From NCBI RefSeq assembly GCF_011045215.1, contig NZ_CP049201.1: a stretch of DNA of 64,000 nucleotides. One strand, written 5' to 3'. The position numbers were made by a program. This DNA is from Escherichia coli (lineage in GTDB: Bacteria > Pseudomonadota > Gammaproteobacteria > Enterobacterales > Enterobacteriaceae). Shown here piece after piece: positions 39,001 to 51,000 of the stretch. Positions within the stretch are counted from its first letter, which is position 1, and every line of letters begins with the position of its first letter.

Positions 39001-42000
39001 AAATGAGCAGGATTTACCGCTTTCGCTAACCGTAGTCGGCATTGCACCGGAAGAGCTATCAGCATGGGCTGGCGCAGATGCTGAACGCCTGACCGTTACG
39101 GCTCTGCCCGCCATTACCACTTATGGCGAACCGGAAGGGAACCTGCTAACAGGGCCGTGGCAGCCTCGCGTCAGCTACCGAAAACAGTGGGCGCGCTGGC
39201 GAGTGATGATTCTGCCGATATTGCTGATTCTGGTTGCGCTGGCAGTGGAACGGGGCGTGACGTTATGGAGCGTCAGCGAACAGGTGGCGCAAAGCCGCGA
39301 CCAGGCTGAGAAACAGTTCTTAACGTTGTTCCCGGAGCAGAAGCGGATTGTGAATTTACGCTCTCAGGTGACGATGGCGCTGAAAAAATATCGCCCACAG
39401 GCCGACGATACCCGGCTGCTCGCCGAGTTGTCAGCGATAGCCAGCACCCTGAAATCAGCGTCACTTTCCGACATCGAAATGTGTGGTTTCACCTTTGATC
39501 AAAAACGCCAGACGCTTCACCTCCAGTTGCGGGCAGCAAACTTTGCCAGTTTCGACAAACTGCGTAGTGCACTGGCAACCGATTATGTTGTGCAACAGGA
39601 CGCGTTACAGAAAGAAGGTGATGCGGTTTCCGGCGGCGTAATGTTGCGGAGGAAATAACATGTTACGCGATAAATTTATTCACTATTTTCAGCAATGGCG
39701 TGAACGCCAGTTAAGCCGTGGCGAACACTGGCTGGCACAACACCTGGCGGGGCGTTCTCCGCGTGAAAAGGGCATGTTACTGGCAGCGGTGGTGTTCCTG
39801 TTTAGCGTCGGATATTACGTCCTCATCTGGCAGCCGTTGAGCGAACGGATAGAACAACAGGAGACGATGTTGCAGCAGCTGGTGGCAATGAACACCCGAC
39901 TGAAGAACGCCGCGCCGGATATTATTGCAGCGCGAAAATCTGCCACAACAACGCCTGCGCAGGTATCGCGGGTCATCAGTGACAGTGCTTCCGCGCACTC
40001 GGTGGTCATCAGGCGGATAGCCGAGCGTGGGGAGAATATTCAGGTCTGGATAGAACCTGTGGTGTTTAATGACCTGCTGAAATGGTTAAACGCACTGGAT
40101 GAAAAATATGCGCTGCGGGTGACACAAATTGATGTCAGTGCTGCTGAGAAGCCTGGGATGGTGAATGTGCAGCGGCTGGAGTTTGGACGGGGGTAAAGTA
40201 TCAGGAGATTAATATCAATAACATTACTCTCGTTAACGTGGCGAGAGTAATTCCCCCAGACTTTATAAGCTAATTTTTTTCGTGAAGGTTATTGTCAGAT
40301 CCAAAAGCAAAAACCCGCCTTGTGGGCGGGTTCTTAAGAATTAGTGGTGCCCGGACTCGGAATGAAACTGGTTATATAACCAATTGTTTTGTATTGACTG
40401 TTTTGCCTTTGCTGTTTTCGGGGCCACCAATGAGGCCCCCATGTGCAATTCGAATTCTTTTGACGCTATAATCCCTCTTTTTTGTGCTTTGCTGTAATCA
40501 TTTTGTCTGGTTCGATGTGTTGATGCGCGGAGTCGTACTTAACGCATTTGTTAGCTGGTCAGAACACTCAATGCTGTTTGTCTGAAACAGGAGTAGGCTT
40601 CTTCCCAGTCAATCTGTGTATTACCAAATACCATCGGTTTAACAAACCGTTGAAAACGCAATTTGTGTACAGGATCATCCCGGAGTGCATCCAGCCCTTT
40701 CTTAAGTTCATCAACTGGTGAGCTACAAAATTGTGGGTACTGGTTACCATAGCGTTCAATATCCTGTTGAATACATATCTGAACAAAATTTTTCAATACA
40801 GGAACATTCACACCTTTTTCCCTGACAATGCAGTAGTTGTCGTAAATGTGACGTACCAGGAACTCATCATCCTGTTGTTCGGGATTACGAAGATGTGCTG
40901 CTGTTCTTCGCATCATGGAGATGAGCTTTTCAGCCTGAGTGGACAAAATGGTGGCACAGGGGAATGCTGTTACAGGTGTACCTTTACCCGTTAACTCCGT
41001 GACAAGTGAATAAATATCTCTGCTTTCCGGATGTTCCAGCAGGGTGCTTTCCATCAACTCCAGCTTAATAAATGGACGAAGACAGGGGACTTGCGCAAAT
41101 GTCTGGGGATAACGTACCGAGATTTCGTTATAACGATACTCATCACGTGTTATACGGGCGTTTTCATTATCCAGGCTGAAAATGTCAGAATTATTAATAA
41201 CATCCGTGATTATTTGCACGATTTTCTTGCGAATTTTTCTTCTCTTGTCTCTGCCATTTTGCATAAAGTTCTCTGTTGGCACGAGCTTTATATCAATATC
41301 TTCTGACATTCTGTTCAATGAGATACCTGCTTTTGACAATGCGGTACCTCCTGCAAACACGAGAGTATGTGTTTCTGGTTTTATTTCTTTTAGTAACTTT
41401 AAAAGATTAACCACAAAATAATCTTTTTCGACGATAGCGACAGATTCAATATCCAGTGCGTTGGCAACGTCAGGAAATAATGATGTTAATTCAGGCATTG
41501 ATTTTACTTTTCCCTACAACTAACACTCTTTTAAAGCGAGGAGGTGTTTTGAACTCCGGAGACACCGGAATCTGTGTGGACTGACCTTTATTGTAGCATT
41601 CTGTTGCGCCGATCAAGCTGTATCTGATATTCAAAAGATCCAGGGCTTCGGTGATTACAGCAGCAGAGCCACCAGGTGCTGCAGGCATTATTTTTCCTGT
41701 AATAACGTTGCGACGGGCTTTGGTGTAAACACCATAGCCCACCTTCATCAACTTACCTTCGTTTACCAGTGTACGAAGAGCTCTGCCAACCTGATCATAG
41801 CCAGCGATATCCCTGAAGTCATCCCGGGTGAACACATAACGCTTTGAACGGTTCAGTCGGGACTGAATACGGTCTTTTGTAGTCATGCTTCCTCCGAAAA
41901 ATATTAAGAATGATAGCAACAATACGGCATGTTTAATAGCGGGGCAGGGTCACATTACCTTTCGGTCAATACATTTGGATAGTATTTCTCAATAATATCA

Positions 42001-48000: not shown

Positions 48001-51000
48001 ACAGACAGAGCCTTACCGTTTGTGAGCGTACAGTCTGCCAGTGCTGTCGCCGGGATCGCAGATTGCGAATCAGGTGCTGCTGGCCTGGCTTTTTCCGGTT
48101 CAGGGGGATTTTGCTCCCCGGACCCGGTATCGGTTTTCCCGGGAGAAGTGACGGTGGCATCGTAAGCCGGCGTCTGAATACGTGTATCCGGTGGATTGTT
48201 ATCGGCGTCATTAAAACGCTTTGTCGTTGATGAATAGCCTGCCTGTTCGTTGGTGTAGCCGCCTGTAGGCATCCGTGATTTCTTACGCCATTCTCCATTC
48301 ACTTTTTCATACCCGGATTCTGTCATCATCCGTTCCTGCAGACTGGTGATTTCTGTTTCAGGGGAGTGCGGTTGCCTGTCCCCGGAATACAGAAACTCGT
48401 CCAGTGTCATCTTTTTGTTCTTCCGGGTATCCGTGTGGATGAGAGATTTCGGAATAAATGTCTTACAGGCTTCGGTGAAGTTACCTTTACGGAAAGTGGC
48501 CGTTTTCCCTTCAATGGTAACGGTTGCTCCCATGAAGTGTGTGAAAGCCGGTATGGCACGGGCTGCCATATCCGGCGCTGCACGGGGGGTATCCCCCAGC
48601 GTCACCATTCTGCGAAATCCCGTGGCGCTGTTACATACCATGAGAGATTTCCAGGTCTGGTCGTTGATTCTGGTAGTGATAAAGCGGGTTCCCGGAAAAT
48701 CGAGATTATCCGGACATCCCTTGTCCATGCTCATAAAAACCATACCTTCATCAGAAATGAGGGCAGTTTCATTTCCTTCACTACTGATGGCCTGGCATGC
48801 GCCGTTTCTGATTTCCCAGTTGTCGGTAAAATAGTCGCAACCGGTAAGAACGGATATTGCCGAAGCTATCATCAGGGAATGACGTAATACCCGCATGTTC
48901 AGTTTTTTGTTCAGCATATTGTCTCCATACCTGTCGGAACGGCTTTGGCAGGCCGGCGATCACAGGTTAAAGGTGTTGATAAGTTTATGGATGAAAGGGA
49001 AATGTGGCAGAGCGGAGATAAAACGCTCTTCAGCGACCAGACTGTGGATGTGGTCTCTCCGTTCAAACCGTTCTGATGTCAGGCTGACCGATTTGATGTC
49101 TGCCAGGGGAAAGACCCGCAGTTTTTCCTTCTGTAACGCGATCAGATACCAGCTTCCGCTGTAATAAATGAGCCGGCAGGGTTCCAGTGACGGATACCAT
49201 TGCTCAGTCACCAGCGAGATGTGGATGCACTGTCTTATTGCCAGGATGAGTTGCGAGAAACACTCGGGGAGTGTTGCAGTGATATCCGGCGCCGGTAGCC
49301 AGATAAGGCAGGGAGAGGGCTCCTGGTTGTCGGTAAGACAGGTTATCAGTCGTCCGTTCCGGAGCGGAAGTATCCGTGCGATCCCCGTATTCTGTATAAA
49401 TGAAAGCATTTCAGGGAGCGCGCCCGGGTTGCTCTGCCGTCTGAGACTGTACCGGCCATTTCTGTACTCTAAGTCCAGGTGAACCAGACGCTGATGAAAA
49501 TCGCGCTGTAAGGTACGTTCTGTAACACCAAATTCATCTGACAGTGTTTTTAGTGACAGAGATTCTCCGGCCATCAGTCGGCTGATAATGAGTGATAAGC
49601 GAACCGCCAGGCGATCATGCCGGGAACGATTATCAGACATAGATGTGTACTCCGTAAGAAAACATCTTTTATTTCATGATGTTATTATGCATCATGATGT
49701 TGAAAGGATGTGTCGTATCCGAATCATCAGGAATAAAATGCAGCAGAAAAAATATTCCTTTAATTATCTGATTTTTAAGCAGGGTCTCATAAAAAGAAGA
49801 ATGCTTGTTAATCCAGCGACACATCCTGTCGGCGTGAGTGTGTCAGAACAGACGATCCCACAGTGTGACCAGCAGGTGGATAATGCGGTCCCGGGCCTTA
49901 CGCAGAAGCTGTAACATCCAGGCCGGAAAGCTGAACCGGGCAACGGTGTCGTCAAAGCTTTTCCCGATGGCGTCACCAAAAGTTTGTTGTGCGTGTTTCC
50001 GGGTCTGTTCAGAGCGGTTTTCCCTCCGGATATGTGAATAAACCGCGCTGGTTGCCTGTGGTGGCAGTGCGTGGATCATCAGCGATACCAGTGCCGGAAG
50101 ATTCCAGCCGACAGGTGCAGCAACGGAGAGTACCGGAAATGATGAAGGGAACAGGGTTGCCACCCGGGCTGTTACTGTTGCCAGTGAGAGTTCCTGCTGA
50201 CGGGACGGGCATTTTTCTGTGTCGTTCCATTCTTCAGCAGGAAACACGCGATCGGCATGGCTGAGAACAAACAGAAAACGCGAGGGATCTGCACCTTCAT
50301 TCAGTAAAAACTGATGCATGGCAATATCAGCAGCATACGCACGTTCATCACTCCGCAGGATCCAGATAATCAGATCCAGTTCCGGTAGCAGCTGACGATA
50401 AAGTGTCCGGTATTCCTGATCATGCTGCGGTGTTTCACCAATGCCGGGCAGATCGACCAGCGTCATTCTGTGTTCACCGAGCTGCAGGGTAAGACGATGA
50501 GCCTGGCGGGTGCAGCCGTTCAGAGGATGTGTGGCGCAGATACGGGACTGAAAAATGGCATTACACAGACTGCTTTTGCCTGTGCCGGATTTACCCATAA
50601 TGCCAATCACGGGCTCGTAATGAATAACACCGTGGAGATGTTCAAGGATTTTCTGGCGAATTTCTTCAGGAAGAAACGTCAGATATGATTTCACTTGTGC
50701 GGAGAGGGAAGAATGGCTGAATGACATACCGTTATCCTGTTGATTTCGCTGAACCGGATCACACTAATCCGGTTTATCATTCATGTAATATGGACGTGAA
50801 AAATGATGGAATGTCTGAATTACGGACATGATTGTTAAAGTGTAATGGAGTATGAAGTGAGTTTTTCCGAACGGGAACTAATGACATACTGCGGTTTCAG
50901 GAGATGAGAGGATGACCGGACGTAAAAACAAATGTGTCAGAAAAAATTGTAACAATCAGGTTTTCTCAGTAAAAATGGCAGTGGAGAAAAGACTGTGCAG

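Follow-up and report, generated by a model that had tools for sequence, protein, structure and literature searches.

Escherichia coli K-12 carries three related islands, CP4-44 (yeeP-flu-yeeR-yeeS-yeeT-cbeA-cbtA-yeeW), CP4-57 (yfjP...ypjF), and CP4-6 (ykfA...ykfI). At their att-distal end, CP4-57 and CP4-6 share with the locus described here the families of a GTPase, a DUF932 protein, a WYL-domain regulator, and a DUF905 protein, together with a slot for an inner-membrane lipoprotein. They also share there an antirestriction protein, a RadC-like protein, a DUF987 protein, an antitoxin, and a toxin. As in this island, YfjI/YfjJ-type genes are found elsewhere in both. The locus occupies positions 41955 to 50727 of a 64,000-nucleotide (nt) stretch (the window) of E. 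coli contig NZ_CP049201.1 (assembly GCF_011045215.1). It consists of 14 consecutive genes, all called on the minus strand (Table 1). Very probably it is the conserved backbone at the tRNA-distal end of a CP4-like genomic island (P4-integrase type) of the CP4-44 lineage, inserted at pheV beside yghD. The biology has already been described: island backbones of this kind are very common, and the present one is a new copy with a mosaic composition. It is more complete than any of the three copies in K-12.

Insertion site and comparison with related islands

The backbone begins exactly at the start codon of the GTPase gene (50727) and ends exactly at the stop codon of the DUF4942 gene (41955). Coding sequence accounts for 7967 of its 8773 nt (~91%). 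This coding density, the common orientation of the 14 genes, and Pfam matches that score well over the gathering thresholds, with E values of 1e-15 to 1e-68, show that the gene set is more than a chance assembly. A first-pass annotation, made from the sequence alone, had named 12 gene types in this region. Open reading frame (ORF) calls and Pfam searches find all of them, at the positions and in the order given and on the minus strand. Two small genes, those for DUF957 and DUF905, had been overlooked.

The insertion site is defined by alignment with the pheV-yghD interval of K-12, which represents the empty site. The two sequences are identical over yghD and the terminator behind it and into the pheV 3' end for 19 nt, after which they diverge completely. 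These 19 nt, a copy of the 3' end of the tRNA-Phe gene pheV, form an attR-like direct repeat. In a pattern search, the 23-mer at 40345 to 40367 (minus strand) matches the pheV 3' end at 21 of 23 positions, with 0 matches expected by chance. Because the K-12 alignment breaks off after the 19-nt copy, the island starts at position 40364. The junction at 40363/40364, directly after yghD (gspM), fixes its left, tRNA-distal boundary. The island is thus inserted at a tRNA 3' end and has a direct repeat at its distal boundary, as is typical of CP4-type islands. It is preceded by the type II secretion system beta operon, of which gspM/yghD is the last gene, and this flanking core DNA (36000 to 40300) is 98 to 99.4% identical to that of many E. 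coli genomes. Horizontal acquisition, previously proposed from gene order, is borne out by this abrupt transition from identity to divergence.

For comparison with the K-12 islands, CP4-44, CP4-57, and CP4-6 were taken from NC_000913.3 and searched with blastp and tblastn. Nine to ten of the backbone genes have homologues there, with identities of 36 to 99%, and CP4-44 is the closest of the three. The synteny comparison suggested in the first-pass annotation thus returned protein identities of 36 to 99%, not an absence of similarity to the CP4 proteins. The att-distal arrangement GTPase...RadC-DUF987-antitoxin-toxin is present, and the relative order of the genes is the same except for DUF932. 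The statement that the locus mirrors the distal module of the CP4 islands holds for the families and for most of their order. It does not extend to the position of DUF932 or to the genes for DUF4942, DUF4234, and the lipoprotein, for which blastp and tblastn find no counterpart in the three K-12 islands.

CP4-44 has RadC, DUF987, CbeA, CbtA, and DUF5983 in the same order as the backbone, including a 4-nt overlap of cbtA and yeeW, and its yeeS-yeeW segment shows 87% DNA identity to the backbone over 1.8 kb. In contrast to the backbone, it lacks DUF905, DUF932, the antirestriction gene, the first 13 codons of the RadC gene, and DUF4942, and its GTPase gene (yeeP) is pseudogenized. A deletion of ~470 bp has cut DUF5983 down to YeeW and removed the N terminus of DUF957, of which tblastn still detects a C-terminal remnant. 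CP4-44 carries Ag43 and YeeR where the backbone has the WYL regulator, the lipoprotein, and DUF4234, and it is inserted at a different site.

CP4-57 and CP4-6 are more distant from the backbone (34 to 83% identity). Their toxins are shorter (109 to 113 amino acids [aa]), and they have no tail of DUF5983, DUF957, and DUF4942. At an E value of 1e-3, neither of their lipoproteins (YfjS and YafY) shows homology to the 433-aa lipoprotein.

The pheV islands of strains C51 (NZ_CP127306) and 67-1 (NZ_CP035826) occupy the same site beside yghD and show the same order of 14 genes, with 79 to 99% protein identity to the backbone and a whole-module DNA identity of ~95% at best. The pheV, pheU, and selC islands of Shiga toxin-producing E. 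coli (PMC6174562) are grouped with them as pheV-associated relatives. Strain 67-1 shares the AbiE pair, and C51 shares the lipoprotein and DUF4234 pair. By per-gene identity the backbone is a mosaic: the WYL regulator, the lipoprotein, and DUF4234 are nearest to C51, and DUF4942 and DUF5983 are nearest to 67-1. The same order is also found in Citrobacter and metagenomic loci, at 35 to 75% protein identity.

Megablast searches detect parts of the backbone in 5042 of 5426 complete E. coli genomes (93%), at a median of 3 places per genome having it, which places it among the most repeated accessory DNA of E. coli. The version with the WYL regulator, the lipoprotein, and DUF4234 is uncommon, and for this reason only 16 of the 5426 genomes cover at least 80% of the backbone. 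No genome exceeds an overall identity of ~95%. The region to the right of the backbone is ~91% identical to the best genome. These values indicate a mosaic, less commonly sampled set of alleles. The description of the module as known biology in the first-pass annotation agrees with this distribution and with the presence of the module in C51 and 67-1, in the same order and at the same locus.

Table 1. Backbone genes and surrounding features, with positions in the 64,000-nt window
Feature	Position	Strand	Evidence or remark
YfjP/YeeP/YkfA-family GTPase, 294 aa, first backbone gene	49843-50727	-	Pfam MMR_HSR1, 55.5 bits
Putative control region upstream of the WYL gene	49684-49831	-	Two inverted 12- to 16-nt sites and a -10-like element
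Helix-turn-helix (HTH) + WYL transcriptional regulator, YfjR-like, 226 aa	48960-49640	-	WYL, 27.5 bits (above cutoff); HTH_11, 23.2 bits (cutoff, 25)
Lipoprotein, 433 aa	47616-48917	-	Lipobox LTGC at residues 24-27, then Asp
DUF4234-like integral membrane protein, 179 aa	47017-47556	-	Pfam, 24.4 bits against a cutoff of 25.3 (borderline)
Terminator-like hairpin after DUF4234	46990-46968	-	
DUF905 small protein, YkfF homologue	46721-46975	-	Pfam, 79 bits; start codon uncertain
Terminator-like hairpin 3' of DUF905	46699-46670	-	12-bp stem; fold z-score, -4.9
DUF932 protein, YfjQ/YafZ homologue, 272 aa	45812-46630	-	Pfam, 163 bits
ArdB/KlcA-type antirestriction protein, 161 aa	45235-45720	-	Pfam Antirestrict (PF03230), 127 bits
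RadC-like JAB domain protein, YeeS/YkfG/YfjY (LfgB) homologue	44743-45234	-	Pfam RadC, 154 bits
DUF987 protein, YeeT homologue, 73 aa	44453-44674	-	Pfam, 136 bits
CbeA/YeeU-family antitoxin, 124 aa	44003-44377	-	Pfam CbeA_antitoxin (PF06154), 183 bits (cutoff, 27)
CbtA-family toxin, 125 aa	43579-43956	-	Pfam CbtA_toxin (PF06755), 212 bits (cutoff, 25); profile 1-112 complete
DUF5983 protein, full-length, 162 aa	43094-43582	-	Pfam DUF5983_N, 108 bits, and DUF5983, 81 bits
DUF957 small protein, 65 aa	42885-43082	-	97-98.5% identity to RefSeq-annotated DUF957 proteins of C51 and 67-1
Terminator-like hairpin after DUF957	42854-42834	-	
DUF4942 protein, 282 aa, last backbone gene	41955-42803	-	Pfam, 228 bits
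AbiEi/DUF6088 antitoxin	41491-41922	-	Pfam DUF6088 and AbiEi_4
AbiEii toxin	40551-41498	-	Pfam AbiEii, 106 bits
attR-like direct repeat	40345-40363	-	19-nt copy of the pheV 3' end
gspM/yghD	39660-40196		Last gene before the island
Cys-rich ORF, 376 aa	50912-52042	+	12 cysteines; GC content, 0.34
YagK/YfjJ ("inovirus Gp2 family," "Gp2-like") gene	53577-54308	+	YagK_YfjJ_C, 129 bits
DUF3987 YfjI-family protein	55479-57083	+	247 bits
Second, weaker YagK/YfjJ-like gene	58673-59239	+	23 bits, below the 25.8-bit cutoff

Protein families of the backbone

The toxin and the antitoxin both exceed the curated thresholds of their families and belong to the CbtA/CbeA (YeeV/YeeU) type IV toxin-antitoxin system. 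In this system, cells with an excess of toxin become lemon-shaped or arrested, and neutralization by the antitoxin does not involve binding to the toxin. The cbeA gene lies directly upstream of cbtA on the same strand, with a gap of 46 nt. CbeA is 88% identical to K-12 CbeA and 69% identical to YfjZ, and it matches the solved structures 2INW and 2H28 (YeeU) and 2EA9 (YfjZ) with E values of 2e-73 to 6e-42 (2e-71 for 2H28). The true start of CbtA is the ATG at 43956, from which residues 1 to 124 align with K-12 CbtA, and not the GTG at 44058 that opens a mechanically called ORF of 159 aa. Over these residues the toxin is 88.7% identical to K-12 CbtA, and it is 66% identical to YpjF. Its N terminus is divergent, and its body is nearly identical to K-12 CbtA from residue 28 to about residue 115. 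CbtA inhibits division and elongation by binding the H6/H7 loop of FtsZ and MreB's flat face, and Phe65 is needed for the interaction with FtsZ (PMC5624674). Phe65 is conserved in the toxin encoded here, as shown by alignment with CbtA, YpjF, and YkfI.

The DUF5983 gene follows directly, its start overlapping the cbtA stop codon by 4 nt. Its product is 64% identical to K-12 YeeW over the N-terminal 55 aa. By this alignment, YeeW (64 aa) is the truncated N terminus of a full-length DUF5983 protein. The designation "YeeW-like" was right as to homology, and the gene is a full-length member of the DUF5983 family. The DUF957 protein has no match in the Pfam copy used and is assigned through its RefSeq-annotated relatives.

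The antirestriction protein belongs to the ArdB/KlcA family by sequence and by its solved relatives: it is close to ArdB (Protein Data Bank [PDB] entry 2WJ9; E value of 3e-98) and more distant from KlcA (2KMG; E value of 6e-20). It is 69% identical to YfjX (LfgA) and 67% identical to YafX. The adjacent RadC-JAB protein, for which an internal start at Met6 is possible, as in its RefSeq homologues, is 98.6% identical to YeeS, 83% to YkfG, and 71% to YfjY (LfgB). LfgB/YfjY has been reported as a protease that cleaves the antitoxin MqsA (PMC10846083). The DUF987 protein is 98.6% identical to YeeT.

DUF932 and DUF905 connect the backbone with conjugative plasmids. The DUF932 protein is 75% identical to YfjQ and YafZ, and full-length homologues with 62 to 64% identity are encoded on at least 5000 plasmids, of which 4469 are predicted to be conjugative. 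In the IncF plasmid pTHO-015-1, the homologue (64% identity) lies beside an SLT gene, oriT, and traM. The DUF905 protein shares 50% identity with YkfF and 44% with the product of a pTHO-015-1 gene located between ssb and psiB. Thus, homologues of both proteins belong to the leading region of an IncF plasmid.

In the 433-aa lipoprotein, a disordered Pro/Thr/Ser linker joins an N-terminal Cys-rich domain to a C-terminal domain that is β-rich. An Asp residue directly after the lipobox Cys (the "+2 Asp" rule) predicts retention of a lipoprotein in the inner membrane, and the LTGC motif followed by Asp predicts such retention here. The family is very small, with 14 homologue clusters found; in their alignment, six cysteines and the motif GYEK..GEWRKKSR are conserved. 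Searches of Pfam, PADLOC, NCBIfam, and PDB return no match. The structure model is of low confidence, with a predicted local distance difference test (pLDDT) score of 51 (~80 for the C-terminal domain), and a Foldseek search with it finds no meaningful neighbor. In all loci inspected, the lipoprotein gene is located between the gene for DUF4234 and that for the WYL regulator (or a gene encoding a paralogue of the lipoprotein's N-terminal domain). Within the same backbone, a lipoprotein gene followed by a DUF4234 gene is found across E. coli, Citrobacter, and metagenomic contigs, at 35 to 98% identity; the pairing is kept in loci L001, L007, L008, L012, L014, and L015. A shorter paralogue of the Cys-rich N-terminal domain occupies the same slot in 67-1 and L008. 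The DUF4234-like protein contains hydrophobic segments at residues 57 to 75 and 97 to 115.

DUF4942 is a large family, with 2149 representatives at 50% clustering. The model of the 282-aa protein, based on an alignment of 68 sequences, is confident (pLDDT of 89.5), and the search with it finds no structural neighbor. Some 468-aa relatives bear an additional C-terminal MTS methyltransferase domain. The label "restriction methylase" probably stems from these longer relatives. The protein encoded here has no such domain; it does not have the methyltransferase fold and is not a methyltransferase by itself. Sequence searches of PDB with DUF4942, the lipoprotein, DUF932, and DUF5983 likewise give no match. 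Among the genes that had no assignment, PADLOC and NCBIfam models match only the WYL regulator, apart from generic GTPase matches under the cutoff.

The GTPase shows full-length identity of 36% to YfjP and 34% to YkfA, and the WYL regulator is 42% identical to YfjR over its full length and scores 68 bits with a PADLOC WYL model. The spacer between these two genes is 202 nt long and has a fold z-score of -4.9, which results from two inverted sites located ~100 nt apart, CGACAGGATGTGTCGC at 49831 to 49816 and ACGACACATCCT at 49716 to 49705 (minus strand). Between E. coli and the Citrobacter-type loci, no blocks of the spacer are better conserved than the two arms, which carry one compensatory change; the control region as a whole is 93 to 99% conserved in 1630 E. 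coli genomes. The paired sites probably serve as operators for the WYL regulator. It is less likely that the arms form an RNA hairpin or another RNA element, because a conserved extended -10-like element, TGCATAAT at 49691 to 49684 (minus strand), lies downstream of both arms, and a transcript starting from it would contain neither. A scan of IMG/VR with the WYL protein returned one near-identical locus only, which is of no use for a covariation analysis. An Rfam search of the interval from 40 to 64 kb (E values up to 0.1) detects no RNA family, including no IsrC-like small RNA. The promoter scan yields 12 sites, against 14 expected from shuffled sequences, and as a whole carries no information.

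Proposed function and alternatives

The backbone falls into five blocks. The head comprises the YfjP-type GTPase and the HTH-WYL regulator. A variable "envelope slot" follows, filled here by the predicted inner-membrane lipoprotein and DUF4234 and in other versions by Ag43/YeeR (CP4-44) or by inner-membrane lipoproteins of the YfjS/YafY type (CP4-57 and CP4-6). DUF905, DUF932, ArdB, and RadC-JAB form a putative establishment block, related to leading-region genes of conjugative plasmids. DUF987 and the type IV pair CbeA/CbtA make up the fourth block, and DUF5983, DUF957, and DUF4942 the tail. In this scheme the backbone would serve the island and not the host, through establishment (anti-restriction) and addiction (type IV toxin-antitoxin). 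On entry of the island into a new cell, ArdB could blunt type I restriction. CbtA, if not counteracted by CbeA, could act on FtsZ and MreB to block division and elongation, so that loss of the island would be penalized. The analysis itself establishes the insertion site, the homologies, and the synteny; the biochemical activities we infer from characterized K-12 or pathogenicity-island proteins that are 66 to 99% identical.

Several observations weigh against this interpretation, or against parts of it. First, DUF932 directly follows the GTPase in CP4-57 and CP4-6, whereas in this backbone its neighbors are DUF905 and the antirestriction gene. The non-K-12 islands inspected (L001, L005, L007, L012, and L015 among them) have DUF932 in the same place as the window; they are those of C51 and 67-1, one of Citrobacter sp. 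Cy232, and three other loci. Second, a tRNA scan of the whole window finds none, and the type of the proximal part of the island is deduced from the related strains and from the YfjI/YfjJ-type genes. As no tRNA gene is found in the window, the island must reach past position 64000. An integrase is not among the scanned ORFs of at least 100 aa between 50 kb and that end. Third, terminator-like hairpins follow DUF4234, DUF905, and DUF957, the DUF905 gene being enclosed between two of them. The backbone probably consists, on this evidence, of several transcription units and is not a single coordinated operon.

Two further points concern the individual activities. Position 15 of the toxin is Cys, with Arg at position 14. 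In K-12 CbtA, Arg15 is needed for the interaction with MreB, and the R15C substitution abolishes MreB binding; Cys15 is the natural residue in YpjF and YkfI; YpjF interacts with MreB nonetheless, and changing this residue to Arg (C15R) has no effect in either protein (PMC5624674). Since Arg15 is not conserved in the family, Cys15 is a variant feature and not a reason for exclusion. As for transfer, the sole match to the F-type nic pattern, at 21880, has 3 mismatches, is at chance level, and lies outside the island, and a repeat search of 40.2 to 51 kb yields only short, chance-like families and no oriT-like structure. As far as the F-type nic site and repeats show, the backbone is not adjacent to an origin of transfer. 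Because no oriT was found, a role in establishment after transfer is proposed by analogy only.

The analogy is with the "anti-defence islands" of plasmid leading regions, which carry klcA-type anti-restriction genes, methyltransferases, single-stranded DNA-binding proteins, and toxin-antitoxin pairs (PMC11541004). Like the IncF leading regions described there, the backbone combines anti-restriction, toxin-antitoxin, and small uncharacterized genes in one orientation, including the homologous DUF932 and DUF905 genes. Unlike them, it has no oriT, ssb, psiB, or relaxase gene, it is chromosomal and presumably linked to an integrase, and its toxin-antitoxin pair is CbtA/CbeA, not hok/sok or higBA. 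It is unlikely, although conceivable from the homology of DUF932 and DUF905 to IncF genes next to oriT, ssb, and psiB, that the backbone is the still-functional leading region of an integrative mobilizable element, transferred by a helper plasmid and expressed first in the recipient. The ArdB, RadC, and CbtA-type domains are typical of the establishment proteins of conjugative elements and would fit such a role. However, neither a relaxase nor an F-type nic site was found, there are no significant repeats in the interval searched, and the backbone is located at the island end remote from the presumed integrase. Plasmids rarely carry near-identical DNA: it occurs in just 24 of 72,556 records, mostly non-mobilizable plasmids or mislabeled chromosomes.

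A combined proposal is tentative and has a low probability. In it, the WYL regulator and the operator-like sites would control the lipoprotein/DUF4234 pair, which is kept from E. coli to Citrobacter at 35 to 51% identity and has no known fold, for envelope exclusion or defense. The segment from DUF905 to DUF4942 would act in establishment, much as a plasmid leading region does, for an island still open to mobilization by conjugative plasmids.

It is quite unlikely that the backbone is primarily an antiphage defense island, in which CbtA/CbeA would act by abortive infection and the GTPase and the WYL regulator would serve as sensor and switch beside the AbiE pair. That pair adjoins the backbone, the WYL regulator matches PADLOC WYL models, the C terminus of the GTPase gives a weak LeoBC-like match (E value of 1e-7), and the variable region of CP4-57 in K-12 holds the defense genes abpAB and rnlAB. 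However, PADLOC models match none of DUF4942, DUF957, DUF5983, RadC, DUF932, DUF4234, and the lipoprotein. The block also includes a counterdefense gene, the anti-restriction gene with a solved ArdB relative. Homologues of DUF932 and DUF905 are found in plasmid leading regions and not in defense islands, and the AbiE pair is replaceable cargo.

Most improbable is that the locus is a decayed prophage in the literal sense, the remnant of a P4-like satellite with leftover phage functions. The K-12 annotation names the homologous regions cryptic prophages, a P4 alpha-like DUF3987/YfjI gene lies nearby, and AlpA-type genes occur in related loci. This reading was nevertheless rejected, since megablast of the 8.8-kb backbone against 50,697 phage records finds only one unannotated 3.2-kb fragment. 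Moreover, genes of the capsid, tail, lysis, cos, or Sid/Psu type are absent from the window ORFs examined, and it is conjugative plasmids that carry the nearest extrachromosomal relatives of DUF932 and DUF905. "Prophage" survives as a historical name; for a module essentially absent from phage genomes, it is a misnomer.

For the assignment as a CP4-like island backbone, the value lies mainly in annotation. The left boundary of the pheV island is placed to the nucleotide, and the labels YeeW, methylase, and prophage are corrected. With the 8.8-kb block recognized as scaffold and not cargo, attention moves to genes that truly vary, the AbiE pair being one example. The new details are minor: Cys15 of CbtA, the non-methyltransferase nature of DUF4942, a rare but positionally conserved lipoprotein, and the paired operator-like sites upstream of the WYL gene.

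Neighboring genes

Only the AbiEi/AbiEii pair separates the backbone from attR. It is found in the same place in 67-1, and C51 has an EAL-domain gene in its stead; to judge from these loci, the pair is variable terminal cargo. In the first-pass annotation, the AbiE genes, a Cys-rich ORF, and a helicase had been taken together as variable cargo around the conserved scaffold. This is correct for the AbiE pair. The "helicase" is a YfjI-family DUF3987 protein and belongs to the backbone genes of the CP4-57 type, and the Cys-rich ORF is 97 to 98% conserved beside the GTPase gene in both C51 and 67-1.

The Cys-rich ORF is transcribed divergently from the GTPase gene. Its product has no match in Pfam, NCBIfam, or PADLOC, and at its position Citrobacter-type loci contain unrelated genes without recognizable domains. 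It is followed by an AT-rich stretch of ~1.5 kb (52043 to 53576; GC content of ~0.34) that has no ORF of at least 100 aa and extends to the YagK/YfjJ gene; its counterpart is likewise unannotated in C51 and 67-1.

Beyond this stretch, the YfjI (DUF3987) and YfjJ/YagK types of backbone genes known from CP4-57 are present on the strand opposite to the module, in agreement with a CP4-type island. The YagK/YfjJ-like proteins share 30 to 33% identity with YfjJ and YagK. Between the YagK/YfjJ gene and the DUF3987 gene, the annotation of 67-1 records an IS110 remnant. The likeness to the 67-1-type island stops at ~61104, and the last 2.9 kb of the window (61105 to 64000) contains ORFs of 155 to 179 aa without a Pfam match.

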